Source of the DNA: an uncultured Alphaproteobacteria bacterium
GTDB taxonomy: Bacteria > Pseudomonadota > Alphaproteobacteria > RF32 > CAG-239
Direction: 5' to 3'
Assembly: GCA_944391375.1 (NCBI GenBank)
Contig: CALXTJ010000002.1
Span: 82 to 64,081 of the forward strand
DNA length: 64,000 nt
Positions within the stretch are counted from its first letter, which is position 1, and each line of letters opens with the position of its first letter. Under the pieces are notes generated by a model. That model was not told the DNA's origin. It ran no database searches and saw nothing but the letters and a program-made list of their open reading frames with translations. Shown here in pieces: positions 41,531-60,190 of this stretch. Position numbers and translations under genes: made by a program.

Positions 41531-41567
41531 ACCATTTATAATCAGACCATTATTTGTCAAGAAAAAA

Positions 41568-41600
41568 GATACCCGGCGTAAAACGTCGGATATCTTTTTT
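41568..41600 (+). terminator. intrinsic terminator (AGATACCCGGCG-loop-CGTCGGATATCT + T6) immediately before RBS of 41623 gene
   Basis: Imperfect 12-bp stem plus T-run. Confidence 0.45.
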
Positions 41601-41622
41601 AATTTAATGAAAGGAAAAAATT

Positions 41623-42171
41623 ATGACAAATAAAAAATATAATCCATTTGCGGATATGTATAACTTCAATGCTAACAGCAGTAACTGGGTACAAAGGTTA
41701 GGGCATAATGCGGACTTTTATAATAATCCGCTGGGTTACAACAGCTCACCCACCCCCAGACCTTATGACAACACAACTGCCTCTGGTATAAATAACAGCT
41801 TTAATATCAATAACCGGCAGCCGTCTTCAAGCGGATTGGAAAGTTACAATCAACCTCAAAAGCAGCAGTATACTAGCCCTAAAGTAAAACCCTTTACTTC
41901 ATGGGATATTGCTTTATCAGCTCTTGAAGGATTTGGAGAGGGAGCAGTCGGCGGAATAGAACGAGATCTAAATACATCATCAAAAGGATTATATGATTTG
42001 GGTAGTGATCTTTTTTTTGACGGAAGCTATGAAAAAAGGCAAAAAGAACTTGAAAAACTGGCTCACGAAGCAAATTTGGATAAATTATACAAATATTCAA
42101 ACTATATTATAGATAACTCAATTGAGTATTTAATAAAATATATGTTTATAAAAAATCTGGGAATTTTCTGA
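41623..42171 (+). CDS. cassette protein A: conserved 48-aa N-terminal module (MTNKKYNPFADMYNFNANSSNWVQRLG...) plus variable C-terminal domain
   Basis: N-terminal 48 aa about 98% identical to the 47657 gene. Residues ~70-105 (SGLESYNQPQK...SALEGFGEG) are shared with the 46159 ORF. Confidence 0.5.
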   Translation: MTNKKYNPFADMYNFNANSSNWVQRLGHNADFYNNPLGYNSSPTPRPYDNTTASGINNSFNINNRQPSSSGLESYNQPQKQQYTSPKVKPFTSWDIALSALEGFGEGAVGGIERDLNTSSKGLYDLGSDLFFDGSYEKRQKELEKLAHEANLDKLYKYSNYIIDNSIEYLIKYMFIKNLGIF

Positions 42172-42845: not shown

Positions 42846-42970
42846 GGGAGAGGGAAATCGCTCTCAAAACGGACAAAAATGGCTTTTTTAATGACAAAAT
42901 CGGACACTTTCGGACGGTTCCGGACACTTTCGGACAGTTTCGGACAGTTTCGGACACTTTCGGACTGGAC
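42846..42970 (+). repeat. conserved leader (GGGAAATCGCTCTCAAAACGGACAAAAATGGCTTTTTTAATGACAAAAT) plus 7 phased 10-bp tandem units CGGAC(A/G)NTTT
   Basis: Units at 42901-42970: CGGACACTTT, CGGACGGTTC, CGGACACTTT, CGGACAGTTT, CGGACAGTTT, CGGACACTTT, CGGACTGGAC. Confidence 0.7.
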
Positions 42971-42975
42971 ATTTT

Positions 42976-43006
42976 TTGTAAAAAAAGGCTATAAAAAAGC
43001 TATAAT
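42976..43006 (+). promoter_or_regulatory. sigma70-like promoter TTGTAA-N19-TATAAT directly downstream of the 10-bp array
   Basis: Identical copy at 47502-47532. Confidence 0.45.
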
Positions 43007-43147
43007 CGTGAGAAGTTGTGCAAGCTGCTTTAAAAGAAAAGAGTGATGTTAAAAATGGTCGCAATACTATTGACAGTAGTTTAAGTGATAACTATGCTAA
43101 CGAAATAGGACGGCTGTTAGGAACAAAATATCGCAAAGGAGATTGTG

Positions 43148-44720: not shown

Positions 44721-44773
44721 TAAAAGCAGACACAATATATAGTAATTTTGTAACAAATATATTATGCACAAGT

Positions 44774-44800
44774 GCCGAAGCTCATAACTTCGGTATTTTT
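44774..44800 (+). terminator. conserved stem-loop GCCGAAG-CTCATAA-CTTCGGT plus T-run, copy 1 (just before RBS)
   Basis: Same element at 47602 and 48959. Confidence 0.45.
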
Positions 44801-44823
44801 TATATAAAAGAAAGGAAAAAATT

Positions 44824-44940
44824 ATGACAAATAAACTAATTACCATGGCTGGTAAATATGCAGTTAAAAAAGTTCGTAATAAAACCGTTAATAAGGCCAT
44901 GGAAAAAATAAGCGAGCCATATGAAAAATTCAAAAAATAG
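44824..44940 (+). CDS. small ORF (38 aa) starting MTNK..., possible decayed remnant of the conserved N-terminal module
   Basis: First 12 nt (ATGACAAATAAA) identical to the 41623 and 47657 genes. Preceded by the conserved stem-loop plus RBS. Confidence 0.2.
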   Translation: MTNKLITMAGKYAVKKVRNKTVNKAMEKISEPYEKFKK

Positions 44941-45145
44941 GTTTTCGGCATAAAACCTCTAAATGTTGGGGAAAGAGAAACCATAAAATGTTTACAAAAT
45001 CGTCATAATACCTTAGATTATTGTAAGAATATAGGAAACAAGGCAAGGAAAGCTTATCAAAAATCCGTAAAATATAGGTAACTTTTTATTAAAACCAAAA
45101 TACGCATCAACACGGACAATATGCACTGTATAACGGGAAGATAAT

Positions 45146-45406
45146 ATGAAAAAGATAATACTGTTTATAATTGGTCTTATGTGTATACCGCCGATATTGG
45201 GTTATTTGACGACATATGTAAGTAACAATCCGGAATATGAAATATACACCGGATTTTGGGGAGTCCTGTATCTATTTATTTATATTCTTTTTCCTTTGTT
45301 ATATAAAGGGAAAATAAAACAAGCTATGAATAGATATGCTTTTTATGCCTTGTTGTACGGCATTTTGTTTCTGATAATAAATATATTGCTCATTTGCTTT
45401 AATTAA
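45146..45406 (+). CDS. small membrane protein (3 TM), hypothetical
   Basis: ORF with hydrophobic helices. Confidence 0.3.
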   Translation: MKKIILFIIGLMCIPPILGYLTTYVSNNPEYEIYTGFWGVLYLFIYILFPLLYKGKIKQAMNRYAFYALLYGILFLIINILLICFN

Positions 45407-45464
45407 ATATGATGAAGCTGTAAAAAGCAGCAAGATTATAATGGTAAATAGAAAGGATAGAGAA

Positions 45465-45965
45465 ATGAAGAATATAATATTTTTACTGTTGGCAGTACTA
45501 ATTCCGACATTGAGTTTGGCAGCAGAAGAAAAGTCAATATTTACATATGAAGCAGAAAAATGTTCCGGTGAAGAAGATGTATTTATACGAGGTTTAGAGG
45601 AAGAATTAGCTAATTGTAAAATTCAAATGCCGGATAATCCATCTACGGTAGATATGAATGAAACTTATTACAAAGTCGGCGATTGCTCTATTGCTGTAGC
45701 CAATAAACTTTTTGATAGAAATTACAAAAAGTATAATGAGCAGGTAAAACAGGATTTTGATGCACTTGTCAAAGCATTTTATGCAAATGCTCATGATATG
45801 GTTCAACATAGCGATTTTGGACTTTTAAGAGGAGGAACTATGTACAATACGGAAGCCATTGCTACGGGGGCTTTTTGGATTAGAGATGTGGTAAAAGAAT
45901 ACCTTTATCAAGCACGAATGGAATGCGATGATAAGGCAGGATTTGATTCACTGGATATAGAATAG
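45465..45965 (+). CDS. secreted hypothetical protein (signal peptide)
   Basis: MKNIIFLLLAVLIPTLSLAAEEK signal; RBS AGGATAGAGA. Confidence 0.35.
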   Translation: MKNIIFLLLAVLIPTLSLAAEEKSIFTYEAEKCSGEEDVFIRGLEEELANCKIQMPDNPSTVDMNETYYKVGDCSIAVANKLFDRNYKKYNEQVKQDFDALVKAFYANAHDMVQHSDFGLLRGGTMYNTEAIATGAFWIRDVVKEYLYQARMECDDKAGFDSLDIE

Positions 45966-46062
45966 ATTATTTTAATCAAACAATGAAAAAGAGACTTGTA
46001 AAAGTCTCTTTTTTGTGCTTTTAAAGAAAGGAAAAATAAGTTAGGCTAGATAAAATGATATG

Positions 46063-46180
46063 GAAATCGCTCTCAAAACGGACAAAAACGGCGTATTTAA
46101 TGACAAAACCGAACAAAATTGAACAATTCTGAACAAAATTAAACAAAAGTGAACATTTTTGAACAAAATTGAACAATCTT
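46063..46180 (+). repeat. conserved leader plus variant phased 10-bp array (GAACAAAATT-type x7)
   Basis: Leader GGAAATCGCTCTCAAAACGGACAAAAACGGCGTATTTAATGACAAAACC. Units at 46111-46180: GAACAAAATT, GAACAATTCT, GAACAAAATT, AAACAAAAGT, GAACATTTTT, GAACAAAATT, GAACAATCTT. Confidence 0.65.
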
Positions 46181-46788
46181 TAAGCGGATTGGAAAGTTAC
46201 AATCAACCTCAAAAGAAGCAGTATACTAACCCTAAAGTAAAACCCTTTACTTCATGGGATATTGCTTTATCAGCTCTTGAAGGATTTGGAGAGGGTATTA
46301 TTGCTGTTCCTAATAGATCTTTTGAAATACTAAAAAACAGTCCTGATCGCCTATCTTCTCTGACAGATACGATGTATAATTTAGTTACAAATTCAAAAAA
46401 TTTATTTAATAATGAGCAAGAATATAAAACTAGAGATCCTGTTTCAACAAATCAATCTACCTTGGAAAATGTTATAAATTATTTGAAACAATACCAATTA
46501 GATAGAGAAATACAACTTTCAGATATTAACAAGCATCAACATATGAGCTGTTTATCAGGAAAGGATGGATTGAGTTTAGGTCTTTTAGGCTTAACAGTGG
46601 GTGCAGGAAAGGAAATAGCGGAGTTTTTCAAAAAATCTTTCAGTCCACAACAAAGAAAAGCATATGGTGGTATTAGCGGTATACTTGCAGACGGTATTAA
46701 AGATATGAATAATAATGTCAAAGGATTTAAACATTCTTATGTTGATGGTAAGGAATGTTATCCACTATTAAAAGAACCATTGCCATAA
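46159..46788 (+). CDS. orphan 5'-truncated cassette C-terminal module (shares a 113-bp junction region with the 41623 gene, then a distinct C-terminus)
   Basis: 46182-46294 is nearly identical to 41829-41943 (...SGLESYNQPQKKQYTNPKVKPFTSWDIALSALEGFGEG). The annotated start lies inside the repeat array, so the N-terminal module is missing. Confidence 0.4.
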   Translation: MNKIEQSLSGLESYNQPQKKQYTNPKVKPFTSWDIALSALEGFGEGIIAVPNRSFEILKNSPDRLSSLTDTMYNLVTNSKNLFNNEQEYKTRDPVSTNQSTLENVINYLKQYQLDREIQLSDINKHQHMSCLSGKDGLSLGLLGLTVGAGKEIAEFFKKSFSPQQRKAYGGISGILADGIKDMNNNVKGFKHSYVDGKECYPLLKEPLP

Positions 46789-46855
46789 TACTTTACAAAG
46801 CACATAAAAAGATTAAATATATAAGGAGGGTTATAATTGTTGGGAAATGTAATAA

Positions 46856-47314
46856 ATGATCATTAAACTGCAGAATGTTTTGTTTGTATTGGGAGTTACT
46901 TTTGTTATACAACTGCTATATATGTTGTTGATGTTTATAATTTTTTTATTAAATAACAATCTAGCAGTTAATAATGAAGAGCTTTTTTTATTTGTTTTGG
47001 ACAATGTTTTATTTGTATCCATAGCCTTAGGAGCCATTAACCTATTTAGTAATAGGTTGTCTTTATATATTTACGAAAAAAGTATAAAAAAAATACCTAA
47101 TTTACGGTGGTATTGTATGTTCTTTAGCTGGACTGTCATTATCCAAAAATTCATACCCGAATTTGAAATCTTTTATGCTGTTTTAATAAGTTGTATAGTT
47201 GGTGCATTGTGTTATCCTGATCGTACCTGGAAACAAAGAGTTAGATATTCATTGATATTTGTTGCTATTTTATTGATGTATTTCTTGGGAGGTTTTACCG
47301 ATTTTGAAAATTAA
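46856..47314 (+). CDS. small polytopic membrane protein (candidate cognate/immunity-like gene of orphan module)
   Basis: 4 TM helices, immediately downstream of 46159..46788. Confidence 0.35.
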   Translation: MIIKLQNVLFVLGVTFVIQLLYMLLMFIIFLLNNNLAVNNEELFLFVLDNVLFVSIALGAINLFSNRLSLYIYEKSIKKIPNLRWYCMFFSWTVIIQKFIPEFEIFYAVLISCIVGALCYPDRTWKQRVRYSLIFVAILLMYFLGGFTDFEN

Positions 47315-47325
47315 CATCATACCAA

Positions 47326-47360
47326 AGAGGGAGGATAAAAACTCCCTCTTTAGTGTTTTA
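47326..47360 (+). terminator. cassette boundary terminator hairpin, copy 3
   Basis: AGAGGGAGGATAAAAACTCCCTCT plus TTAGTGTTTT. Confidence 0.45.
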
Positions 47361-47371
47361 AAAGCAGACAA

Positions 47372-47496
47372 GGGATAGGGAAACCGCTCTCAAAGCGGAC
47401 AAAAACGGCGTATTTAATGACAAAATCGGACACTTTCGGACGGTTCCGGACACTTTCGGACATAATCGGACAGTTTCGGACACTTTCGGACTGGAC
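47372..47496 (+). repeat. conserved leader plus 7 phased 10-bp tandem units CGGACNNTTT, copy 3
   Basis: Units at 47427-47496: CGGACACTTT, CGGACGGTTC, CGGACACTTT, CGGACATAAT, CGGACAGTTT, CGGACACTTT, CGGACTGGAC. Confidence 0.7.
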
Positions 47497-47501
47497 ATTT
47501 T

Positions 47502-47532
47502 TTGTAAAAAAAGGCTATAAAAAAGCTATAAT
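47502..47532 (+). promoter_or_regulatory. sigma70-like promoter TTGTAA-N19-TATAAT, copy 2
   Basis: Identical to 42976-43006; lies 5 bp after the array. Confidence 0.45.
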
Positions 47533-47567
47533 CGTGAGAATTTGTGCAAACTACAAAATCTCACGAT
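47531..47567 (+). promoter_or_regulatory. perfect 9-bp inverted repeat ATCGTGAGA-N19-TCTCACGAT overlapping the -10/+1 region (operator-like)
   Basis: Read directly from the sequence. Only the left half-site is present in copy 1 (43005-43013). Confidence 0.4.
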
Positions 47568-47601
47568 TATATTTTAACTTAAACTAAAATTTTAACAACA
47601 A

Positions 47602-47632
47602 ATACCGAAGCTCATAACTTCGGTATTTTTTT
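47602..47632 (+). terminator. conserved stem-loop ATACCGAAG-CTCATAA-CTTCGGTAT plus T7, copy 2 (attenuator/terminator-like, directly before RBS of 47657)
   Basis: Perfect 9-bp stem plus T-run, between the promoter and the gene. Confidence 0.5.
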
Positions 47633-47656
47633 ATTTAAAAGAAAGGAAAATAAATC

Positions 47657-48379
47657 ATGACAAATAAAAAATATAATCCATTTGCGGATATGTATAACTT
47701 CAATGCCAACAGCAGTAACTGGGTGCAAAGGTTAGGATATAATGCGGATTTTTATAATAATCCGCTGGGCTATAACAGCTCTCCCACCCCCAGACCTTAT
47801 AAAATCGCCAGTAATGATATACCAGTGGTAAATAACAATAAAAAAGTTGATTACTCAGCTTATGGAGAGGGTTTTAGTAAAGAATTTATTGATAAGATGC
47901 TTGATGATAAACGTTTCAATAATATCATGAACAGTAGAGTAATAAATAACGAAGGTGGATACGTTAATCATCCTAATGATTTAGGAGGTGAAACAAAATA
48001 TGGGATTACTAGTAGATGGTATCCTAATGAAGATATAAAAAACCTAACAAGAGAAAGGGCTAATGCTATTTTATACAGAGACTATTGGCAAAAAACAAAT
48101 ATTCATCAACTTCCCGATGAATTTGCCGATATTGTTTTTGATGACAGCATTGTTCAAGGACAGCCAACAGCTATTAGAAATTTACAAAAAGCTTTGGGTG
48201 TTAATGATGATGGTATCATCGGTCCCAAAACATTAAAAGCATTTCAGCACCAAAATCACAATATTATACGAACAAAATTTATAAAAAATGTTAATGATGT
48301 TGAAAATGAAAATATAAAGAACAACCCTTCTCAAAAAGTTTTTGAAAAGGGTCATAGAAACAGATTTAACGCTTATTAG
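47657..48379 (+). CDS. cassette protein with conserved N-terminal module plus GH108-like lysozyme domain and PG_binding_3-like domain
   Basis: N-terminal 48 aa shared with 41623. GGYVNHPNDLGGETKYGIT resembles the GH108 signature (EGGYVNDPxDxGGxTxxGIT). C-terminal ...ALGVNDDGIIGPKT resembles a peptidoglycan-binding domain. Confidence 0.6.
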   Translation: MTNKKYNPFADMYNFNANSSNWVQRLGYNADFYNNPLGYNSSPTPRPYKIASNDIPVVNNNKKVDYSAYGEGFSKEFIDKMLDDKRFNNIMNSRVINNEGGYVNHPNDLGGETKYGITSRWYPNEDIKNLTRERANAILYRDYWQKTNIHQLPDEFADIVFDDSIVQGQPTAIRNLQKALGVNDDGIIGPKTLKAFQHQNHNIIRTKFIKNVNDVENENIKNNPSQKVFEKGHRNRFNAY

Positions 48380-48837
48380 TTTCTAGCTAATATTGACCTA
48401 ATTATAGTTGATATATAATTTTTTAGTGCTTCAGTTGTGGCGTATTCGCTATATAAATAAGGTGAAACGCCACAATTATTTTTACGGCAATAGTTAGTTT
48501 CATTATATACAAATAAATAGTTGTCATACATATAATTATCATACTGATTAAGGCGTTCCCTTGCTTCTCTGTCAGATAAATTATAGTATTCTGTTATAAT
48601 TATTTCACCTACATCTTTATAGCAATCTCTGGTTTTATGATGTAAATCAATTAAAAAGTTATAACATTTCATACTCCAAGTTTCAGGGCATGTTGTACTT
48701 TGTTTAGTAAATTCATCAGAACATTTTATAAAATCATCATCTAATTTATTTATAGAGGATGATATTTCAGCACTAACACTGGTTGCAGACATTAAAAAGC
48801 TCAAAAGAGAAATAATGTATATTTTTTTCATAATCAA
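48376..48837 (-). CDS. secreted Cys-rich periplasmic protein, convergent with GH108 gene (candidate immunity protein)
   Basis: Signal peptide MIMKKIYIISLLSFLMSATSVSA, 8 Cys residues, RBS AAGGA. Its stop overlaps the 47657 gene's stop. Confidence 0.4.
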   Translation of the reverse strand: MIMKKIYIISLLSFLMSATSVSAEISSSINKLDDDFIKCSDEFTKQSTTCPETWSMKCYNFLIDLHHKTRDCYKDVGEIIITEYYNLSDREARERLNQYDNYMYDNYLFVYNETNYCRKNNCGVSPYLYSEYATTEALKNYISTIIRSILARN

Positions 48838-48958
48838 TTATCCTTATGCATAAAACCGACGAAGAAAGTTTAGATTTAATCCATAATATAAGCAACAACT
48901 TTTATAGTTAAAGCACAAGAAAATAATATTTTAACTCAAACTAAAATTTTAACAACCA

Positions 48959-48989
48959 ATACCGAAGCTCATAACTTCGGTATTTTTTT
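48959..48989 (+). terminator. conserved stem-loop ATACCGAAG-CTCATAA-CTTCGGTAT plus T-run, copy 3, directly before RBS of portal gene
   Basis: Identical to the element at 47602. Preceded by the shared block TTAACTCAAACTAAAATTTTAACAACCAAT. Confidence 0.5.
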
Positions 48990-49008
48990 ATAATAAGAAA
49001 GGAAAATA

Positions 49009-50787
49009 ATGTTCGCATATACTCTTGAAAAAGAAAGCTTTATGTCAACGGGAAATCCCGATGATAAGCGGGCAGTAGTTCAAGATGTGGTGGATTTATT
49101 CACATCTTGGGATACTGTTCGTACCAAACAAAAAAATATTGCCGATAAGTTGCATTCGGAAATCTATCTGGATGACCGAAAAAAAACTTATGTCCCGGAA
49201 GATGACGAATGGAAATCGGATATCCATCTTAATAAAATCTATTCGTTATTCCAAACACATCAGGCCTACATTTGGGATAATATCTATTCTAATGTGGAAA
49301 ATATGTTTGATGTTGAAGGAATTGATGATCTTTCGGCACAAACGGCTTTGTTGCAAAAACAAAAACTGGTTAATACCTTTTATAATATCGGTATTCAACG
49401 CAAGCTGGATACCGCTATTGAGCATTTAGACAGTGTCGGTGAAATTTGTTTGTTTATCGGTTGGCAAAAAAAATATAAACAAATCCGCCGTCGTTTGGAT
49501 AAATTCAGCTCCTCTGCCGATAAGCCCTTGCTTACTCAAGGCTTGTTCGGGGTGTTTAATCAGGAAATTTATAACGGAGCCGATGTTGAGGCCATCAACC
49601 CGCTCAATTTGGTATTTGACCCCAGGGTTAATCCCGACGATAAGGAAAAATGGGATGCCTGTGGTAAAATTATTAAATCATGGGAAACTTATCAGTCGGT
49701 AGCTTCCAATAAATTGTATAATCTTAAAAAAGAAGAGCTTGATGATTTGCATAAAATGTTAAACTCTCCTTCCAAAGATGAAGATCGTTCGGAAACCGAT
49801 AAAACCGATGATGTGGTTGATAGCGATAGGGTTGAGGTTTTACAATATTGGGGGGATTATGTTACCCCCAAAGGCAATGTTTTAAAAAACTGGCATATCG
49901 TAGTTATCGGTCGTAAATATCTGGCGGTGTTTGAACCTAATCGCTGGGTAATTAACCCGATTATCAATATGGCTTTGTTTAGGGATATCAACAGTAAACG
50001 AGGTATTCCCGAATTATGGTCCATTTACGATATATGTAAGGAACAGGAAAATAAAGTAAACTTACAAAATGATGCTCAATCACTTAACCTAAATCCTCCG
50101 GCCTATGCTCCGGAGGGTTTTTTTAAGGAGGAAAAAGTAAAACTCTTCCCCGGTAAACAAGTGGAATACAAACAGGGTCTTGAAGATCCCGGAGCAATCA
50201 TCAAAATGCAGTTTCCGTTGTTCAGCAATGAAAATATTATTCAGTATTATGACAATACGGCTTCAAGCGTAAGCGGTATTTTTCCCAATATGCAGGGACA
50301 ACAGGAAATAAGCAAAGCCACGGCCACCGAAATAAGCATTAAGGTTCAGGGACAAACCACGCGTTTGGGTAAAACTTTGGATACCATCAAGCAAAATGTT
50401 ATTGTCCCGATGGTGCAAAAAGTTGCCGAACTTGAAGCTAATATGAAATTCGGCGATGAGGTTTTAAAGCTTAACATTTTGGGGTATCCGGTTACCAAAA
50501 CCATTGATGATGTGGTGCGTCAGGGCAATTATGAATATCGTTATACCGATAATACCGGTATTCAGAAAAAACTTAACACCAATCAAACGCTTATTCAGAT
50601 TTTTACGCAAATCTGGAATGATGAAAGCGTCCCCTTAAACAAACTGCAAATTGTTAAAGAAGTACTGCGTAATGCCGGCATAGAAAATACCGAAAAGTTT
50701 TTTCTAAGCCAAAATCAAATTCCGGCAGCCAATCAAAATACAGCGGCTGCCGGTGTCAACAATAATCTTTTACCCGTTCAAAAGTAG
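49009..50787 (+). CDS. putative phage portal (head-to-tail connector) protein
   Basis: 592-aa protein heading a module with scaffold-like and capsid-like genes in podovirus order. Assigned from size, position and composition only. Confidence 0.45.
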   Translation: MFAYTLEKESFMSTGNPDDKRAVVQDVVDLFTSWDTVRTKQKNIADKLHSEIYLDDRKKTYVPEDDEWKSDIHLNKIYSLFQTHQAYIWDNIYSNVENMFDVEGIDDLSAQTALLQKQKLVNTFYNIGIQRKLDTAIEHLDSVGEICLFIGWQKKYKQIRRRLDKFSSSADKPLLTQGLFGVFNQEIYNGADVEAINPLNLVFDPRVNPDDKEKWDACGKIIKSWETYQSVASNKLYNLKKEELDDLHKMLNSPSKDEDRSETDKTDDVVDSDRVEVLQYWGDYVTPKGNVLKNWHIVVIGRKYLAVFEPNRWVINPIINMALFRDINSKRGIPELWSIYDICKEQENKVNLQNDAQSLNLNPPAYAPEGFFKEEKVKLFPGKQVEYKQGLEDPGAIIKMQFPLFSNENIIQYYDNTASSVSGIFPNMQGQQEISKATATEISIKVQGQTTRLGKTLDTIKQNVIVPMVQKVAELEANMKFGDEVLKLNILGYPVTKTIDDVVRQGNYEYRYTDNTGIQKKLNTNQTLIQIFTQIWNDESVPLNKLQIVKEVLRNAGIENTEKFFLSQNQIPAANQNTAAAGVNNNLLPVQK

Positions 50788-50799
50788 AAAGTATTTATC

Positions 50800-51000
50800 G
50801 TGGATTTAATAGAACTTCGTGAACTGATGCGTTCCGAAAAGGGTCGGCTGTTGTTATGCTACCTTACGGATTTTATGGTTGAAGTTTCCACCCGCGGTAA
50901 TGCCAACGCCGAATGGATAAAAGGTATGGGCATGCTTATCAATCATTTAAAAGAAATTGATGAAATATGCCAAAAATTAAATGAAGAAAAAAGGAGATAA
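50800..51000 (+). CDS. small hypothetical phage protein
   Basis: Short ORF between the portal and scaffold genes; GTG start. Confidence 0.2.
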   Translation: MDLIELRELMRSEKGRLLLCYLTDFMVEVSTRGNANAEWIKGMGMLINHLKEIDEICQKLNEEKRR

Positions 51001-51002
51001 AA

Positions 51003-51992
51003 ATGACAATTAAAACTAAATCAACACCTTCACAGCGTTTGACGGATAACTCCTCTGATATATTTGTTGCGGATACCTCTCTAAAAGAGCCTGAAGCAGT
51101 ATATCAAGAGCCCGTAAGCGATGCTATGGAAGCTGATGTTAATGATAAAGCCTTGGAAGATGGCGGTCTTATCTTTGGTAAGTTTAAGACCATGGAAGAG
51201 GCTCAAAAAGGCTATAAAGAGGCGGAACGAGCCATCACGAGAGCCGCCGATTTGGAAAAAGAACTGCAAAACTACCAGTATCTTTCCAAAGCTTATGAAG
51301 AAGATGCCATAGCTAGGCAGAACGGTTATTCCGATCGTTTGGAAATGGCACTTAATCATGATGTAAAGCAACATGAACTTGACAGTTATGCCTTGGCGGC
51401 AAGCCATACATTACCGTATCAGGCTCAGTTGGAAGTTGCTCAATTGATAAATATGTGCCGTCTTGGCGGTACGGAAAAGGAATTCAACCTTTTACGGCAG
51501 TATTTTCCGCCGCAAGTGGTAGCATTGGTTTCCGAAGATGCGGCTTTATACAAAAATTCGCGTCAGGGCGAGTTTGATAATATCCGCAGTAACGATAAAG
51601 CCATTCGTTATGCTCGGAAATTGCATGAATTCCGCAATCAAAACGAGAGTTGGTTTGATTCTCCCTTAAAAGAAGACCTTATAAATCAGGCTCTGGAAGT
51701 CTCGGACGGCAGAGTAGATTTAAACGGGCTTAAAAAAATGGCCGATGCCGTAGTGGAAGAAGCTCTCAAAAAATATCAAACCGGTCAGGATACGGCGTAT
51801 CAAAATGCTCTGATGCAAGACAGTTTGCAAACTCCGGGCAATGATAACACGCGTATCAAAAACAAAAAATGGCTTACCAAGGATGAGTACTACAAACTCA
51901 CTCCGGCACAGGAAGCCGAAAAATATGATTTAATCGTGGAACAGGTTTTGCTTGAAAAACAAGGCAAGTTACCGCGTATGTTAACCAAATAA
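51003..51992 (+). CDS. putative capsid scaffolding/assembly protein
   Basis: Acidic, helix-rich, low-complexity 329-aa protein between portal and capsid. Confidence 0.4.
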   Translation: MTIKTKSTPSQRLTDNSSDIFVADTSLKEPEAVYQEPVSDAMEADVNDKALEDGGLIFGKFKTMEEAQKGYKEAERAITRAADLEKELQNYQYLSKAYEEDAIARQNGYSDRLEMALNHDVKQHELDSYALAASHTLPYQAQLEVAQLINMCRLGGTEKEFNLLRQYFPPQVVALVSEDAALYKNSRQGEFDNIRSNDKAIRYARKLHEFRNQNESWFDSPLKEDLINQALEVSDGRVDLNGLKKMADAVVEEALKKYQTGQDTAYQNALMQDSLQTPGNDNTRIKNKKWLTKDEYYKLTPAQEAEKYDLIVEQVLLEKQGKLPRMLTK

Positions 51993-52016
51993 TTTAATTT
52001 TTGAAAGGAAAAAACT

Positions 52017-52955
52017 ATGTCAACAAATGCAGAAACTTTAAACAGACAATTATCCGCCATTATTCCCGAAGTATGGAGTATGTCTTTAACCAAAGGTTTG
52101 GATAAATCCGGTGTGGGAATGAAGGTAGTTAATCGTATTCACGAAGCCGATACTCACGAATACGGCGATACCGTAAACATCGGTGAATTGGGTGATGTAA
52201 CTATTTCCGATTACTCGGAAGATGTATCCTCAGGCGGTGTAAATTACCAAAGAATTGATGCCAAAAATCAGCAATTAAAGCTTGATCAAAGCAAGGCTTT
52301 CGGTATTTTTGTTTCCGATATCAGCAACAAACAGGGCAACATTAAAGACTTGCAGTCTAAAATTGAAGCCAAAGCCAAAACGGCAATTGATTTGGCCAAA
52401 GATACCTATATTCTTTCGGCATTTTCGGAAATTCCTGAGGAAAACAAACTGGATAACATTACTTTAACTCCTGATAATGCTTATAAGTGCTTGGTATGGT
52501 TGTCTAAGACCTTAAAGAACAATAACGCCGTTCAACTTAAAAACGATCAGGTGTTTAAGTCCAATCAAGCCGGCGGCGATGCCATGCCGTATGTAATAAT
52601 CAATCCGGATGTTGAAGCAATTTTATTGCAATCACCCGATTTTATTCATGCTACCCAAGCCGGCGACAGAGTGTTGCGTGAGGGTTCAATCGGTACCATT
52701 GCCGGATTGGATGTTTTGGTATCCACCAACTTGCCGACAACCGAGAAAAAAGTCAACATTATGGCCGGTATCAATGATGCCATTGCCTTTGTGGGCAATA
52801 TTTCGCATATTGAAGCCATTCGTGATGAAAAATTCTTCGGCACCAATATCCGCGGCTTATATGTTTACGGTAAAAAAGTAGTTTTACCGAAAGCCTTAGC
52901 CGGTATGACGGTAGATGTAAGTGCTGCTGATTCCATTGTGGAAGCTGCAGCTTAA
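52017..52955 (+). CDS. putative major capsid protein
   Basis: 312-aa protein after the scaffold, strong RBS, followed by a strong terminator hairpin. Assigned by position and size. Confidence 0.45.
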   Translation: MSTNAETLNRQLSAIIPEVWSMSLTKGLDKSGVGMKVVNRIHEADTHEYGDTVNIGELGDVTISDYSEDVSSGGVNYQRIDAKNQQLKLDQSKAFGIFVSDISNKQGNIKDLQSKIEAKAKTAIDLAKDTYILSAFSEIPEENKLDNITLTPDNAYKCLVWLSKTLKNNNAVQLKNDQVFKSNQAGGDAMPYVIINPDVEAILLQSPDFIHATQAGDRVLREGSIGTIAGLDVLVSTNLPTTEKKVNIMAGINDAIAFVGNISHIEAIRDEKFFGTNIRGLYVYGKKVVLPKALAGMTVDVSAADSIVEAAA

Positions 52956-52995
52956 CATTAAAATAGAGTCATATAAATCCTTTCGTTATAAAAAA

Positions 52996-53030
52996 CAGAG
53001 GACGCAATGTAAATTGCGTCCTCTGCTGGT
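52996..53030 (+). terminator. intrinsic terminator after capsid gene (CAGAGGACGCAAT-loop-ATTGCGTCCTCTG)
   Basis: 13-bp perfect stem with a weak T-run. Confidence 0.5.
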
Positions 53031-53062
53031 TTAAAGGAAAAATGTTTTGAGGAGAAATAAAA

Positions 53063-53293
53063 ATGGCATCGGAAATTGCAGATAAAGTTTTAGGCAAAAA
53101 GACCGATAACTTTACAAAAAACGATAAATATCTGACCGCCGATTGCATATGGCAGGTTTATAAAACCGGCTGTGGCAATAGCCGCGTCAACGGGTTAATG
53201 GCAGCCGAAATGCTAAGTCCGGAAGGTAAGAAAAAAGCCAGAAGAGGCATTAAAAAAATTACTGACAAAGACTTTGTTTTTGAGCGGCAATAA
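53063..53293 (+). CDS. small hypothetical phage protein
   Basis: ORF with RBS GAGGAG. Confidence 0.25.
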   Translation: MASEIADKVLGKKTDNFTKNDKYLTADCIWQVYKTGCGNSRVNGLMAAEMLSPEGKKKARRGIKKITDKDFVFERQ

Positions 53294-53308
53294 TAAAAAG
53301 GAGGAAAG

Positions 53309-53974
53309 ATGAAAACCTATTTTGATATTATACGCGATGTATCCAATTTAAGATGGTCGGTAGTTGATACCGATCCTTCATCTTTTGCGGAAGTTCAAAA
53401 AGCCGTAAAGTTAGCAATACAACAGGCTAATAGCTATATTTGGGGATTGGATAATTTTCCGTTTAAGGTAAAAAAAGAGGCTTTTAAGATTAACAAAGGG
53501 CAGTCGGCATTACCGGCACCTAAAGGCAGTATTGTTAATATTTGGCTTGATGGTTCCAATACATATTTGGAAGAAATCAGTCAGGAAAAAGCCGATTTTC
53601 TTTCGGGAGAAGAGAAGGGTAAGCCGGTGTGTTTTTGGATAGAATTCGGAGATGATGGCGCCGAAGTGCATTTTTATCCCAAGGCTTCCGAAGACTGCAC
53701 CATGTTAATCCGTTATATAACTAACTGTAAGGCCAGAGCCCAAGACGGCACTTTAAAAGCCAACTTATCGGATATGGACGATGTATTAAACTTGCCTGAC
53801 GACAGTGTGATAGAGGACTTGTTTTTGCATTGTTTAAATACCAAGGCAATGGAGTATTTAATTGCCGATACCAATGATGAAAACTATCAGCCCTATCAGA
53901 AAGAATTTGCGGAAGCTTATTCGTCGTTATTATGTTTTAGCGGGGTTAAGCATAATCCTCGTTTAATAGTTTAG
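53309..53974 (+). CDS. virion structural protein, possibly tail tubular/adaptor-like
   Basis: Size and position match T7 gp11-type proteins; only weak pattern similarity. Confidence 0.3.
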   Translation: MKTYFDIIRDVSNLRWSVVDTDPSSFAEVQKAVKLAIQQANSYIWGLDNFPFKVKKEAFKINKGQSALPAPKGSIVNIWLDGSNTYLEEISQEKADFLSGEEKGKPVCFWIEFGDDGAEVHFYPKASEDCTMLIRYITNCKARAQDGTLKANLSDMDDVLNLPDDSVIEDLFLHCLNTKAMEYLIADTNDENYQPYQKEFAEAYSSLLCFSGVKHNPRLIV

Positions 53975-53984
53975 GGAGGCGGCC

Positions 53985-55574
53985 ATGCTAAACACACTGT
54001 TTATTGATAATTTTCGGGGAATTCGCAAATTTAATCCGGTGGCAGATTTGCTATCAAGCGGAGTGGTTTCGGCCTTAAACTGTCAAAATGTAGAGCTTAC
54101 CAATACCGAACACAGTAAAAATTTAGCCATTTTTACGGCCAAAGGCAACAAAGCGGTTAAAGATATCGGGCAAAAAGTTGTCGGACAGTTTGAAAGTATT
54201 CAAAACGGGACATCTTATTGGTTTATATATGCCACGGACGATACAAGAGGGTATCTTTACACTTTGGGAACCGATAATGAGCTGACGCTTTTAGATGTAA
54301 ATTTATCGGTAAGTGATGATTGTAACGGTATTACCATTGCCCAAGGTTATAACGACTGGTTTGTATTTACCAACGGTGTGGATGATTATTTGGGAGTTTG
54401 TATGTCGCAAGCAGCTCCTGAAGACCGTATTAAATTTTTGAATGCAACCGATGCCGAAGGGCGAGATATCAGAGGCTTAGGGCTTGAAGTTCAGGACGGA
54501 AGATTGGTAACCTTTTGCCAAAATCGGGTTCATTGGTCAGGACAATCCAACATTTTTGACTGGATATCAAGCGATGAAGAGTTGCTTACGGCTCCGGCAT
54601 ATCAGGAGTTTGATCGTGATGTAACGGCCATTACTCTTTACAATGATATGTTGATAGCCTTTACCGATGAGTATTCCACTTATTTTAAGGGCAATCCCGG
54701 AGATGCAAGTACCTTCACCCGAGGCGGAGCTTCTGGCGGAGGGTGTCCGTCGTTTCGTTCGGTAATCAAGTTTGATAACAAGCTTTTTTATTACGATAAC
54801 AAAGCCAAAAATGTTTTTGCTTATTACTTAATGGACAGCGGACAAACGCGTCCGAGTGAAGGGCTTGCCAATAATGTCATTTCTTATTTTGAAGAAATTG
54901 ATGAAAGTAAATTAAATAAAATAGAAATGGTAAGTTATATCCACGGTAATAAAAGTGAGATATGGCTTAAATTTCCCTCAACAGAGAGGAATGTAATTTT
55001 AATTTACGATTATTTGAACGGCGAATGGTGTGAACGTGTTGCTCAAGCCGATATTCACGGATTAAGCCTGATAAAGGGCGGATTATATTCACTGTCCGGA
55101 ACTAAGGTCTTAAAAGAATATGTCGGTTCTACATTTGATGGGGAATATATACCTTCGGAATATAAGACCAACATCATCAACCTGCAAAGCGACAGTAACA
55201 TCAAAGTGCCGAAAATGCCTTTGATTTTAACCTTGGATTTTGACTGTGAAAACGACTTTTATATGGAGTTTATCTACGATGATATGCCTAAAAAAAGCCG
55301 CACATTTCATATTGTTAAAATGATGAAAGGTTACTTGATTTGGGCAAACTCTACAGCAGATGAAAAAGGCGGTCTTTGGAGTTTGGATGCATCAGATGAA
55401 AACGGCGGCATGTGGGTAAGTTCGGATAAAAACACCGTAATGTTTAACTTGGCGGGAGTTTTACCGTTTAAGCAGTTGCAGATACGAATTTTTACCAAAG
55501 ACAGTCCGCAAGAGTTTGCCGTTAAACGGCTGGAATTCAAACGCGTCGGCTTAAAAACCAAAAGCCTGGGTTAA
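53985..55574 (+). CDS. large virion structural protein (tail/nozzle-like)
   Basis: 529-aa protein in the structural gene run. Confidence 0.3.
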   Translation: MLNTLFIDNFRGIRKFNPVADLLSSGVVSALNCQNVELTNTEHSKNLAIFTAKGNKAVKDIGQKVVGQFESIQNGTSYWFIYATDDTRGYLYTLGTDNELTLLDVNLSVSDDCNGITIAQGYNDWFVFTNGVDDYLGVCMSQAAPEDRIKFLNATDAEGRDIRGLGLEVQDGRLVTFCQNRVHWSGQSNIFDWISSDEELLTAPAYQEFDRDVTAITLYNDMLIAFTDEYSTYFKGNPGDASTFTRGGASGGGCPSFRSVIKFDNKLFYYDNKAKNVFAYYLMDSGQTRPSEGLANNVISYFEEIDESKLNKIEMVSYIHGNKSEIWLKFPSTERNVILIYDYLNGEWCERVAQADIHGLSLIKGGLYSLSGTKVLKEYVGSTFDGEYIPSEYKTNIINLQSDSNIKVPKMPLILTLDFDCENDFYMEFIYDDMPKKSRTFHIVKMMKGYLIWANSTADEKGGLWSLDASDENGGMWVSSDKNTVMFNLAGVLPFKQLQIRIFTKDSPQEFAVKRLEFKRVGLKTKSLG

Positions 55575-55597
55575 TTTTAAATAAAGAGGAGGCAATA

Positions 55598-55810
55598 ATG
55601 AAAAAAAAGGCAACCGGCAAAGTAAGTTATCAGCCTTCGGAAAGTTTTGAGCAGTTAAACAAGCTACAAGAAATGGCAATTTCGCAAGAAAATGTAAGTT
55701 TGGCATTAAAAGCGGAAGAGCTCAAAGGCAAGCTTGCCGGATTGTATAGCGATAAAAAAGAGGCTGAAGAAGTTGATACGACGCCTCTTGAGATAAAAAT
55801 CATCAAATAG
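55598..55810 (+). CDS. small hypothetical phage protein
   Basis: ORF with RBS AGGAGG. Confidence 0.25.
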   Translation: MKKKATGKVSYQPSESFEQLNKLQEMAISQENVSLALKAEELKGKLAGLYSDKKEAEEVDTTPLEIKIIK

Positions 55811-55822
55811 GAGGTTGGTAAA

Positions 55823-56224
55823 ATGGTAGTTTTAATAGAAAAAGACAGTCCTTTTTTTGAAAGGCAGAAAGCCAAAGAGCTATTTGAAGCCAATCGGGAA
55901 AATTTGGATGATGAAAACGGGTTTGAGGGCATATTAGCCAACAGCCGTTTTTTTAATGTCTATCAACACGGTTATATCGGCTCCGGGTTTGTATATCAGG
56001 GAGCCGACGATAATCGCAATTATTTGGGTGGATATATGCTGCGAAAACATCATAAAGAAGCGGTGGAGGCCATTAAGCAAATCTGTTCGCTTTTTGATGA
56101 AGTTTACGCCCATACCCGCCATGTAAATGCGGTTATAGCCTTAAAACGAGCAGGTTTTAAGTGGTATGATCGCAACAAAAAATTGTTAGTTAAGAAAAAC
56201 AAAATCAAGAAAGGAGAAAAATAA
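55823..56224 (+). CDS. hypothetical phage protein
   Basis: ORF with RBS GGAGG. Confidence 0.3.
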   Translation: MVVLIEKDSPFFERQKAKELFEANRENLDDENGFEGILANSRFFNVYQHGYIGSGFVYQGADDNRNYLGGYMLRKHHKEAVEAIKQICSLFDEVYAHTRHVNAVIALKRAGFKWYDRNKKLLVKKNKIKKGEK

Positions 56225-56916
56225 TGTCAAGTAATGTAAAAGCCAAACCGCAAACCTTTTCAAGTTCAGGTTTATACGGAACGGCAACCACCAATAAAAA
56301 CGGAACAACTTATAATCCGAGTAATTTTGAAAAACAGCTTGTGGGAATGACCACGCAGTATATTCCGCAGTATTTGCAGCAGCTGGTAAACCCGACATAT
56401 GACAGTGAGGTTTTTAAGGCCCAGACCACGCAAAGGAACAGACTTGCCAATCAAAGCTTTGAAAACAATTTAATAAATCCGCTGTCGCAAAGAGGTTTGA
56501 CCAGAGGTTCAAGCGTTAATCAGATGAGTAACCAGTTTGCCAACAAATTGGCTGATTTGGAGACAGATGCTATGGCCAATGAGGATACGCGTAATGCCAA
56601 TATGTTGAATAACTTGTTTAATTACTATCAAGTGCCATACGGTATAATGATGGGCATGTCCGATTTCAGCAATCAGCAATATCAGAGTGCCGTTCAAAAT
56701 GCCTTAAAACAGAATGAGTTAAATAATAAAGCATTAAAAACTTGGGCAACTTCATTGGGCAATATGTCGGGATTTGGAGCTGGTCAAGGAGACAACTCAT
56801 CCGGCATGGGCTGGGGAGGCTTAGTAGGCACCGGCCTTGGTTATGCACTCGGAGGTCCGGCAGGAGCATCAGTTGGTTCCATATTTGGCAATCAATTGGG
56901 CAATTTGTGGAAATAA
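56224..56916 (+). CDS. Q/N-rich protein with C-terminal glycine-zipper hydrophobic segment (internal virion/membrane-active protein?)
   Basis: C-terminus GWGGLVGTGLGYALGGPAGASVGSIFGNQLG carries a GxxxG repeat pattern. Confidence 0.35.
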   Translation: MSSNVKAKPQTFSSSGLYGTATTNKNGTTYNPSNFEKQLVGMTTQYIPQYLQQLVNPTYDSEVFKAQTTQRNRLANQSFENNLINPLSQRGLTRGSSVNQMSNQFANKLADLETDAMANEDTRNANMLNNLFNYYQVPYGIMMGMSDFSNQQYQSAVQNALKQNELNNKALKTWATSLGNMSGFGAGQGDNSSGMGWGGLVGTGLGYALGGPAGASVGSIFGNQLGNLWK

Positions 56917-56983
56917 CAGTAAAATTAAGAATAAAACTCCGCTTATTAAAAGCGGAGTTTTAAATTTTTAAAGGAGATAAAAA

Positions 56984-58096: not shown

Positions 58097-58099
58097 AGA

Positions 58100-58140
58100 T
58101 TATGCCGCATTTTAGCTAATGCGGCATAAGTTTTGTAAAA
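58100..58140 (+). terminator. intrinsic terminator (TTATGCCGCATT-loop-AATGCGGCATAA plus GTTTT)
   Basis: 12-bp perfect stem. Confidence 0.55.
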
Positions 58141-58151
58141 AGGAGAGAAAA

Positions 58152-58409
58152 ATGGATTTTTTAAACTTACTGGGAGCGATGTCGGGGTGTGCCTCAATCG
58201 TGTCTTTTTTGGCTTTAGTAATAAGGCTTGGGGAGTGGAAGGCCCGCCATGAAGAGCGATTGGCAAGCCAGGGCAAACGCATTGACGGGATAGAGATAAA
58301 GCAAGATTCTCTATCATTATTATTAAACAAAAACAACGAGATATTAGCAGAAATTAAAGTAAAAGTTGACTTAATGCACAAGGAAAAAAATAAAAGGAGC
58401 AAACAATGA
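58152..58409 (+). CDS. putative holin (single TM plus charged coiled-coil tail)
   Basis: MDFLNLLGAMSGCASIVSFLALVIRL TM helix, RBS AAAGGAGAGAAA, overlaps the endolysin start by 4 nt. Confidence 0.4.
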   Translation: MDFLNLLGAMSGCASIVSFLALVIRLGEWKARHEERLASQGKRIDGIEIKQDSLSLLLNKNNEILAEIKVKVDLMHKEKNKRSKQ

Positions 58410-58876: not shown

Positions 58877-59031
58877 TAAAGAAAAAAGAACATAGTTGTA
58901 AATATCAGTTACGAAGAGAAATTATTCATAAACTAAGTAGGTGGCAATTATTTTGGCTATGTGTGTTGTTTTTGGTGGTAATGGGAATAATCGGAGTTTT
59001 TGCCCCGAGTGCCATAATCGGAATTTTATAG
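58873..59031 (+). CDS. small TM peptide (52 aa) overlapping endolysin stop; possible lysis accessory (spanin/antiholin-like)
   Basis: MIKKKEHSCKYQLRREIIHKLSRWQLFWLCVLFLVVMGIIGVFAPSAIIGIL; below the ORF-track cutoff. Confidence 0.2.
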   Translation: MIKKKEHSCKYQLRREIIHKLSRWQLFWLCVLFLVVMGIIGVFAPSAIIGIL

Positions 59032-60171: not shown

Positions 60172-60190
60172 ATTAAGTTAAAAACAAAAA

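Follow-up and report, generated by a model that had tools for sequence, protein, structure and literature searches.

A terminator-like hairpin fused to a Shine-Dalgarno sequence before toxin-like cassettes and the portal gene of a podovirus-like cluster: a candidate late-gene gate in an uncultured gut alphaproteobacterium

Introduction

In an uncultured Alphaproteobacteria bacterium (GTDB lineage RF32; CAG-239) a 64,000-nt stretch of DNA (assembly GCA_944391375.1, contig CALXTJ010000002.1, positions 82 to 64,081; hereafter the window, to which all plain coordinates refer) carries a short element at 44772, 47602 and 48959, composed of a 25-nt hairpin, a T6-7 run and a AAGAAAGGAAAA Shine-Dalgarno (SD) sequence. 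It stands immediately before genes of a toxin-like cassette array and before the portal gene of a phage-derived particle cluster. Why should a structure that looks like a transcription terminator lie between a promoter and a start codon, and why should the same structure front a cassette gene and the first virion gene? A preliminary description, made from the sequence alone, had offered a regulated attenuator, an antitermination target or an RNA-processing site. With moderate confidence, the comparisons reported here point to a tR′-like terminator gate that would be bypassed by promoter-loaded processive antitermination of the Q, BrrG or GafZ kind.

Copies of the element and predicted termination

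Direct reading of the sequence bore out the three hairpin/T-run/SD copies (Table 1), with the start of copy 1 corrected from 44774 to 44772. Copies 2 and 3 share the exact 25-mer ATACCGAAGCTCATAACTTCGGTAT, i.e., ATACCGAAG-CTCATAA-CTTCGGTAT (47602-47626 and 48959-48983), to which copy 1 (44772-44796; GTGCCGAAG...) has two mismatches. None of 100 dinucleotide-preserving shuffles contained a match to the 25-mer, and none is expected by chance. Five to six A/T bases separate the T-run from the (A)AAGAAAGGAAAA sequence in copies 1-3. The block TTTTAACT(T/C)AAACTAAAATTTTAACAAC, said to precede two of the copies, was found as well, at 47572-47599 before copy 2 and at 48929-48956 before copy 3. Further copies sought within the window comprised a diverged fourth module (41565-41625), whose homology to copy 2 starts within the 3′ arm of the hairpin, and an orphan terminator with an SD remnant at 45990-46035. 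Among public genomes the exact hairpin was present in only one metagenome-assembled genome, labelled uncultured Alphaproteobacteria, with five exact copies and one variant; scans of viral contigs for the hairpin and for the leader block gave no matches. The 38-codon open reading frame (ORF) behind copy 1 is a remnant, because it has TAG at 44938-44940 where the 85-codon gene of a 98%-identical relative has GAG (L005:5513; related loci are designated by L numbers).

As RNA, copies 1-3 form stems of 10-11 bp with four G-C pairs and energies of -11.8 to -12.7 kcal/mol. When the fourth module and a variant from the 98%-identical relative are included (L005:3022; altered loop, longer 11-bp stem, -16.5 kcal/mol) the range extends to -16.5 kcal/mol, and no comparably stable fold arose in 200 shuffles. 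Every copy has a T6-T8 run on the + strand that follows the stem without a gap, the tail on the - strand being weak (TTGTTGTT), and a simple terminator scan detects every one of them. The two A-to-G changes of copy 1 convert A-U into G.U pairs; since both are G.U-compatible on the + strand only, the fold is kept there (-12.7 kcal/mol) and weakened on the - strand (-9.4 kcal/mol). Both hallmarks of an intrinsic terminator, a stable GC-containing stem-loop and a U-run directly 3′ of it on the transcribed strand, are present, and the initial impression of such a terminator holds for every sequence feature (stem, energy, U-run on the + strand). Judged by these features, the element is a strong, textbook intrinsic (Rho-independent) terminator on the + strand. 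Rfam at gathering and E-value thresholds returned no family match, only a tRNA elsewhere and sub-threshold noise from terminators of small regulatory RNAs (sRNAs). The shape CCGAAG-N7-CTTCGGTATTTTT was found at 40 metagenome loci on unrelated contigs; these are generic terminators, many with an A-run on the opposite side as in two-way terminators, and are usable as a shape control only.

The distance from the U-run to the ATG is only 19-24 nt, mostly taken up by the SD sequence, so that no promoter fits 3′ of the hairpin. For eight structural genes behind copy 3, the window and the 98%-identical relative show 85.5 synonymous and 24.5 non-synonymous differences; the resulting ratio of non-synonymous to synonymous change (pN/pS) of 0.074 indicates that the operon is functional. 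Because there is no promoter room downstream and the operon is under strong purifying selection, RNA polymerase must pass the hairpin. No + strand intrinsic terminator was found between the genes of the operon, which makes copy 3 a single gate at its head.

Promoter block and leader of copy 2

The claim that copy 2 lies between a promoter and a start codon is supported by a promoter block found 5′ of it and recurring in relatives. The core of this block, TGGACA-18-TATAAA-5-TATAAT, occupies 47492-47532 and is repeated at 42966-43006, and copy 2 follows approximately 70 nt 3′ of the -10-like element. A strict composite search (-35 hexamer with at least 5 of 6 positions, 16-18 nt, -10 hexamer, 4-6 nt, -10-like hexamer) gave two matches only in the window, the 47492 block and its truncated duplicate at 42966. 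With about 1.3 expected, this count is within chance, and the placement of the matches is the informative part. A relaxed pattern including the trailing nGnGA gave 11 matches in 513 kb of related loci, where about 1.2 are expected (0.145 per 64 kb). All 11 are on the + strand, 5′ of cassettes or of the portal gene, and represent at least six lineages, with matches in L049, L055, L057/58, L074 and, three times, L075.

Variant sets of the phased repeats that precede the block lie at 42880-42965, 46095-46170 and 33712-33760 in the window and also in L003, L005, L055 and L075. The upstream 10-mers (TTTYGRACA) match 7-8 of 9 positions of the DnaA-box consensus TTWTNCACA; this likeness would fit an activator with a DnaA-like helix-turn-helix (HTH). 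Two other readings were rejected for unsuitable spacing, namely an extracytoplasmic function (ECF) σ promoter made of the repeats and the CGT motif, and CtrA boxes made of the TTAAC repeats. No σ70 promoter was seen on the + strand in the TTTTAAC block just 5′ of the hairpin, which is promoter-like on the - strand only. TTAACT-N17-TATTAT forms a second possible - strand promoter, nearer the divergent gene (48837 to 48376) than the leader-block TTGTTA-N16-TAAAAT, and both - strand sites in 48883-48955 are possible promoters of that gene.

From a start near 47528 the leader is predicted to fold with -34.2 kcal/mol (z -10) into two independent hairpins joined by the 28-nt G-less linker. The first of them, stem-loop 1, has a counterpart in L075, an analogous stem of different sequence. 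No alternative antiterminator pairing that competes with the terminator stem occurs in the predicted leader fold. The leader is therefore not a structure-switching attenuator, and a protein-dependent mechanism is favoured; the two independent hairpins and the absence of an Rfam match also speak against a riboswitch.

Within the linker, UUUAACAA (47591-47598 and 48948-48955) corresponds to the 3′ part of the boxA (NusB/NusE site) consensus GCUCUUUAACAA, and TTTTAACAAC also stands 5′ of a different terminator in L075:8520-8535. The UUUAACAA 8-mer occurs 13 times in the window, and the likeness to boxA may be chance.

Q-type antitermination units are defined by a pause element, a -10-like NANNNT hexamer located about 5 bp 3′ of the -10; this hexamer is essential for BrrG-dependent expression of the Bartonella gene transfer agent (GTA), where a leader terminator attenuates a constitutive promoter (10.1101/2024.11.20.624540). 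Two of the traits of such a unit occur at copy 2, a -10/-10-like promoter and a terminator between the promoter and the first gene. A further one, a cognate antiterminator (Q, BrrG, GafZ) with its binding element, was not recognised among the scanned ORFs of the window or, with PHROGs, in relatives.

Recurrence of the architecture in related lineages

The same architecture recurs with unrelated hairpin sequences in at least six related lineages of gut Alphaproteobacteria. Every lineage that has cassettes or host genes between TerL and the portal gene carries, before the portal, one to three hairpins with a U-run and then an (A)GAAAGGAAAA-type SD sequence (Table 1). Across lineages the stems are perfect and 9-12 bp long, with a loop of 5-10 nt and then U6-8. 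In L055, where the cluster begins directly with the portal after host genes, the full set lies directly 5′ of that gene: repeats, TGGACA-17-TATTAA-6-TATAAT, a different hairpin with U8, and the SD sequence. L075 has, three times before its own toxin family (MNNLFQNNY...), the repeats, the promoter, stem-loop 1, a UUUUAACA linker, a different terminator and the SD sequence, and in L046 the portal, a tail-fibre-like gene and no fewer than six cargo genes are each preceded by a hairpin-U7-SD module peculiar to that lineage. These comparisons indicate that the modules are homogenised within each genome and that between genomes only the architecture is kept.

In true phage relatives (IMG/VR loci, L051, L053) the TerL stop abuts the portal ATG and there is no hairpin. 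Late promoters of the same -10/-10-like layout, followed by a terminator, stand before TerS in L051 (L051:8034; TTGACT-17-TATAAA-4-TACAAT) and L066 (L066:3484; TTGACA-17-TAAAAA-4-TACAAT). The late promoter of L053 (TTGAAA-17-TACCTT-6-TATGAT, then two terminators) was recognised by eye; it is not in the output of the composite search because its -10 is below the threshold of that search.

Table 1. Features of the locus and of the region before the portal gene in related lineages.
Feature	Coordinates	Strand	Details
Phased repeats	47416..47491	+	seven 10-bp phased repeats TCGGACAYTT; DnaA-box-like; candidate activator sites
Promoter block	47492..47539	+	TGGACA (-35), N18, TATAAA (-10, 47516-47521), AAAGC, TATAAT (-10-like, 47527-47532), CGTGAGA
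Promoter block, second copy	42966..43026	+	leader truncated, fused to toxin 3′ fragment and immunity genes; no hairpin
Leader stem-loop 1	47527..47571	+	AUAAUCGUGAGA...UCUCACGAUUAU; 5′ arm overlaps the -10-like element
Linker, first copy	47572..47599	+	G-less, AU-rich, TTTTAACTTAAACTAAAATTTTAACAAC, includes UUUAACAA; - strand reads TTGTTA-N16-TAAAAT
Linker, second copy	48929..48956	+	beside start of divergent - strand gene (48837 to 48376)
Copy 1, hairpin and T6	44770..44801	+	AAGTGCCGAAG-CTCATAA-CTTCGGTATTT; -12.7 kcal/mol, z -4.8
Copy 1, flanks (direct reading)	T6 44796-44801; SD 44807-44819; ATG 44824	+	SD AAAGAAAGGAAAA
Copy 2, hairpin and T7	47600..47632	+	-12.7 kcal/mol, z -8.1
Copy 2, flanks (direct reading)	T7 47626-47632; SD 47638-47650; ATG 47657	+	SD AAAGAAAGGAAAA
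Copy 3, hairpin and T7	48958..48989	+	-11.8 kcal/mol, z -6.9
Copy 3, flanks (direct reading)	T7 48983-48989; SD 48995-49006; ATG 49009	+	SD AAGAAAGGAAAA
Diverged fourth module	41565..41625	+	hairpin AAAGAUACCCGGCG-UAAAA-CGUCGGAUAUCUUU, T6, AATGAAAGGAAAA, ATG of 182-aa cargo gene; -15.5 kcal/mol
SD and ATG of 38-codon remnant	44807..44826	+	SD AAAGAAAGGAAAA; nonsense-truncated 85-codon gene
SD and 240-aa cargo protein	47638..48379	+	shared N-terminal domain (MTNKKYNPF...), GH108 lysozyme, peptidoglycan-binding domain
SD and podovirus-like structural and lysis operon	48995..60171	+	genes listed below
Portal	49009-50787	+	phrog_332/1216, weak Head-tail_con
329-aa ORF	51003-51992	+	no family match; scaffold-gene position
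Major capsid	52017-52955	+	phrog_267
Tail genes, then lysozyme	lysozyme 58406-58876	+	lysozyme PF00959
Bidirectional terminator closing the structural operon	60190..60213	both
L046/47 pre-portal hairpin			GGTCTTAAAAGG...CCTTTTAAGGCC
L048 pre-portal hairpin			GGTCGTGA...TCACGGCC; before identical portal protein
L050 pre-portal hairpin			CGGCATT...AATGCCG
L055 pre-portal hairpin			AAAGCACCAT...ATGGTGCTTT
L049/57 pre-portal			own hairpins
L074 pre-portal			three hairpins in series
L075 pre-portal			own hairpin

A terminator gate and the evidence for and against it

In the proposed model each hairpin would act as a gate at the 5′ end of a late unit, be it a cargo toxin-like gene or the portal operon. 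Under uninduced conditions, transcription from the 47492 promoter would stop at the U-run of copy 2 and leave only a leader RNA of about 100 nt. Transcripts from constitutive promoters of immunity genes would be halted short of a following toxin gene and of the genes for virion and lysis proteins, which would thereby be insulated. Upon induction, an antiterminator loaded at the promoter would make the polymerase insensitive to copies 2 and 3 and to the remaining cassette terminators, and the GH108 cargo gene behind copy 2 and the portal-to-lysis operon would be expressed together. The model accounts for the presence of the same element before a cargo gene and the portal, for terminators on the 5′ side of toxin genes, and for an architecture conserved without conserved sequence. 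Cargo genes and the first gene of the capsid cluster are thus probably switched on only by terminator-resistant RNA polymerase. The sequences show the hairpin, U-run and SD anatomy, the lack of promoter room behind it, the promoter with its -10-like element, the architecture kept across lineages and the purifying selection on the operon; termination in vivo, factor-dependent read-through and the identity of the factor are inferred. Of the functions originally suggested, an antitermination target is the likely one; the stems of 9-12 bp with a U-run speak against an RNase III site, and the lack of a competing pairing against a riboswitch-like attenuator. The suggestion that cassette proteins are co-regulated with particle production is plausible, since a transcript begun at the 47492 promoter would run through the GH108 gene and on into the portal operon, gated first by copy 2 and then by copy 3.

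Several observations weigh against a regulated gate. Among the scanned ORFs of the window there was no antiterminator, GafYZ, DUF6362 or Q-like gene, and PHROGs recognised no antiterminator among ten regulator-position proteins of relatives. The single-sequence AlphaFold model of the DUF6362 protein had a predicted local distance difference test (pLDDT) score of 35 and is unusable, and hhalign detected no profile similarity between DUF6362 and DUF6456. Nine aligned copies of the hairpin have 100% of cells paired, in line with a kept structure, but show no double compensatory changes, being too alike for covariation to be informative. Given the lack of a terminase and the signs of decay (a nonsense codon, truncated toxin genes), part of the array is possibly non-functional. 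No separate promoter block lies directly 5′ of copy 1 or of copy 3, where the element might be a plain insulator. Finally, within the window, terminators close before start codons were not significantly enriched in the island (4/27 vs. 2/43, p=0.15).

The last two points also favour the serious rival, in which the hairpins are plain terminators or insulators with no dedicated regulation, each one merely closes the unit before it, the identical copies are left over from cassette shuffling by homologous recombination at a shared 5′ boundary, and the downstream genes live on constitutive leak-through. Homology breakpoints right at hairpin edges agree with it (left of copy 1, 13 nt upstream in L004, and just after T7 in L005:871), as does the finding that the same intergenic region of the divergent gene, with the hairpin, fronts the portal in the window and a toxin gene in a relative. 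Yet copy 2 and its analogues in L055 and L075 sit behind a conserved promoter and not behind a gene, and the gene upstream of the promoter of copy 2 has its own terminator at 47324. Moreover, the two to three strong terminators in series before the portal of L046 and L074 would allow almost no leak, although purifying selection is evident, and the -10/-10-like promoter signature is left unexplained. We regard this reading as unlikely, though well ahead of those based on RNase III, a riboswitch, a recombination site or an sRNA, which are weaker.

An element that stabilises the mRNA 5′ end, enhances translation or is processed, e.g., by RNase III as in phage T7, would agree with the short fixed distance between the hairpin and a strong SD sequence and with the AU-rich unstructured region. 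Like the T7 sites, the hairpins lie between genes of a podovirus-type cluster just 5′ of ribosome-binding sites. The T7 sites, however, are irregular stems of about 20 bp or more with an internal loop and no U-run. RNase III needs roughly two helical turns, and stems of only 9-12 bp fall below this; their perfect pairing, the 5-10 nt loop and the U6-8 run do not fit a T7-type site. Such functions do not require the U-run that always follows, L005:871 has the hairpin and U-run with no SD sequence, and the + strand sequence bordering the hairpin on its 5′ side has no recognisable σ70-type promoter. Nor was a T7-type RNA polymerase gene seen in the cluster or its relatives. Altogether, we consider a stabilising or processing role very improbable.

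A DNA-level recombination site for cassette insertion, integron attC-like or Xer/dif-like, would be suggested by a palindrome with arms of 9-11 bp and a 7-bp centre, by cassette junctions coinciding with it, and by cassette content that differs between 98%-identical relatives. We found, though, no recombinase domain among the scanned window ORFs, and neither the nearby tyrosine recombinase nor the conserved core with extrahelical bases that mark attC and Xer sites. The centre varies between copies (CTCATAA vs. TCTTT), the stems are perfect, the hairpins of other lineages are unrelated and have only stem, U-run and SD in common, and copy 1 keeps its pairing only as + strand RNA. The homologies of 88-240 nt that flank the cassettes suffice for homologous recombination, and a dedicated site has very little to commend it.

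Equally slight is the chance that the hairpin is the 3′ end of a gene for a trans-acting sRNA of about 100 nt, whose promoter, stem-loop 1, G-less linker and terminator with U7 would resemble an Hfq-type sRNA, as the L055 transcript would be only about 45 nt, essentially a bare terminator, an SD sequence with its gene comes straight after, a promoter is missing at copies 1 and 3, and Rfam gave no match. An sRNA does not exclude the gate: the late promoter of phage lambda, too, gives rise to a short leader RNA that ends at a terminator.

Candidate factors in relatives

The antiterminator may be encoded at another place in the genome. In Caulobacter the transcriptional activator is GafY, and the antiterminator GafZ enables RNA polymerase to run through terminators located within the GTA cluster (PMC11150451). 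Homologues of GafA carry a DUF6456 annotation and often stand behind a small DnaA-like gene (PMC9638019). Genes for a DUF6456 protein and for an HTH protein of the DnaA_C type are present in L051 as well as in L053. In the reduced relatives L049, L057 and L075 an S24 repressor gene is divergent from a DUF6362 gene, giving the order S24-DUF6362-TerL upstream of the cluster, and in L075 the DUF6362 gene lies directly 5′ of the first promoter-terminator block. The DUF6362 and DUF6456 proteins of relatives are candidate factors only, the former because its gene is divergent from the S24 repressor and adjoins the L075 block. A PDB sequence search with DUF6362 gave no match and a homologue search returned only itself. 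A 128-aa protein encoded 5′ of the L051 late promoter was rejected, its position not being conserved. A search for the region upstream of TerL in the nearest relative turned up only TerL fragments, which belong to an unrelated higher-GC lineage with an integrase insertion.

Comparison with known systems

The element is likely of a known type, the promoter-proximal terminator of an antitermination-controlled late unit. As in the late units of lambda, P21 and phi80 (pR′, pause element, tR′ and Q), a σ70-type promoter is followed 4-6 bp on by a second -10-like hexamer and shortly downstream by a strong intrinsic terminator before the first late gene, and the operon comprises virion and lysis genes. 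Unlike there, no Q gene or Q-binding element was identified, 10-bp phased repeats lie upstream, the terminator is fused to the SD sequence of the next gene, and several copies precede toxin cassettes, all this in an uncultured alphaproteobacterium with a podovirus (SU10/T7)-like particle.

The GTAs of Bartonella (BaGTA; PbgtA-K and BrrG) and Caulobacter (CcGTA; GafY-GafZ and terGTA) are likewise alphaproteobacterial, chromosomally fixed, phage-derived particle clusters (10.1101/2024.11.20.624540; PMC11150451). Their expression needs a processive antiterminator to pass post-promoter terminators, and their regulators may sit at other loci; BaGTA also has a -10-like element 5 bp after the -10. 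A likeness to GafY and GafA is seen in the DnaA_C-HTH and DUF6456 proteins encoded by true phage relatives of the present cluster (PMC9638019). In contrast to the compact 25-nt hairpin fused to an SD sequence described here, the GTAs use a long leader of 864 bp or GC-rich repeat terminators of 150 bp. Toxin cassettes are absent from them, their capsids belong to other lineages, and the scanned ORFs of the window include no homologue of GafYZ or BrrG.

Morons are independently expressed genes inserted in phage late operons (PMC2629481). Like them, the cassettes consist of variable genes that bring their own signals. They are placed between TerL and the portal, are absent from true phage relatives, and have terminators that keep inserted genes from driving late genes. 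They differ from morons in that the terminator is 5′ of the toxin gene and the toxin looks late-regulated, only the immunity genes looking autonomous. MuF polymorphic toxins (PMC5576092) share a common N-terminal part with variable C-terminal toxin domains, a place in the packaging/head region of prophages, and gut bacteria as hosts. The proteins described here, however, have no MuF domain but a lineage-specific N-terminus of about 50 aa (MTNKKYNPF..., MSNKN..., MNNLFQ...), their hosts are Alphaproteobacteria and not Firmicutes, and no such regulatory leader is described for MuF toxins.

As far as the sequences tell, novelty lies more in what surrounds the element: in uncultured gut Alphaproteobacteria, a domesticated, podovirus-like cluster is combined with polymorphic toxin cassettes that are gated by terminators. 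Lambdoid phages are the established case of antitermination control, and recent work has demonstrated it for the GTAs of Caulobacter and Bartonella; if the gate is real, such control extends to a third, unrelated particle lineage, the podovirus-like one, in hosts that are abundant but uncultured. Its compact logic would be readable from sequence, with toxins gated 5′, immunity genes under their own promoters, and virion and lysis genes behind the same gate. The promoter, -10-like element and hairpin offer a testable handle for finding the missing regulator, the element allows a test of whether particles carry protein toxins, and the multi-copy leader would also explain cassette exchange in front of the portal gene.

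A further proposal, which we regard as doubtful, is that the hairpin modules constitute the regulatory core of a domesticated, SU10/T7-like particle system for toxin delivery of a kind not described before. Peptidoglycan-attacking toxins (GH108 here; Tlde1/YkuD in relatives) would bear the shared N-terminal tag, be silenced by the 5′ terminators and be induced by a processive antiterminator together with the genes for capsid, tail and lysis. Cells would sacrifice themselves to release phage-like particles loaded with toxin, a capsid-based delivery device for protein as opposed to a DNA-transferring GTA. The proposal draws on the absence of a terminase at the window locus; one regulon is suggested because extra tail-fibre-like genes at other loci share the upstream repeats.

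Cassette array and particle operon

The region from 41.6 to 48.4 kb (41623-48379) is a mosaic array of the polymorphic-toxin type. Its proteins have a common N-terminus, MTNKKYNPFADMYNF... (MTNKKYNPFADMYNFNANSSNWVQRLG.NADFYNNPLGYNSSPTPRPY), and differing C-termini (GH108 at 47657; no known domain named at 41623), and relatives have Tlde1/YkuD-type toxin domains at the same place. Each module continues with small membrane or signal-peptide proteins that are immunity-like (DUF805-like at 42244 and 44135), and 5′-truncated orphan modules lie at 43025-43185 and 46159-46788. Promoter-like sites whose -35 hexamers are good stand 5′ of two immunity-like genes (TTGACA-17-TATGCT at 43070; TTGACA at 42184). 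The - strand gene 48376-48837, divergent from the portal side and convergent with the GH108 toxin gene, encodes a signal-peptide protein, likely a periplasmic immunity protein for the GH108 cargo. The repeated leader and the shared N-terminal coding region would supply the homology for cassette exchange before the portal.

Outside the array, four TCGGACAYTT repeats like those of the cassette promoter blocks (33712-33760) stand 5′ of gene 33845-35764 (639 aa, MLGKTNAINK), with no hairpin. The N-terminus of its product matches L046 genes (5350, 17413) that bear hairpin-SD modules; this protein, encoded about 8 kb from the array, may be an extra tail-fibre-like member of the same regulon. In L046 itself, a tRNA-like sequence (6553-6829, - strand, by eye) lies within the cassette array of a heavily rearranged cluster, in which the major capsid gene is followed by an inserted Tlde1 toxin gene.

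The window, which is chromosomal and comes from a low-GC organism, includes housekeeping genes for RNase J, HflX, RecJ, NusB, NrdR and Mrp. It contains no terminase gene, and no repressor or integrase gene lies near the structural cluster, whose end adjoins a UDP-glucose dehydrogenase gene in the window, L001, L049 and L058. This common neighbour, together with the lack of a nearby terminase, repressor and integrase, suggests that the particle cluster is vertically inherited, i.e., domesticated. An ECF-type sigma factor (Sigma70_r2 and r4, 164 aa), preceded by an 82-aa ORF, is encoded at 62604-63346, 2.7 kb past the cluster; no link between it and the promoter blocks could be made.

Two further hairpins lie within the operon. 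A strong 12-bp hairpin with seven G-C pairs (52995-53026) occupies the gap between the major capsid gene and the next gene and has a T-run on the - strand only, with no + strand U-run. The other, a terminator-like hairpin with T7 inside the portal ORF (50093-50125; ATCCTCCGGCCTATGCTCCGGAGGGTTTTTTT), encodes the motif NPPAYAPEGFF and is probably a by-product of coding constraint, because this motif is conserved and the hairpin recurs in most lineages.

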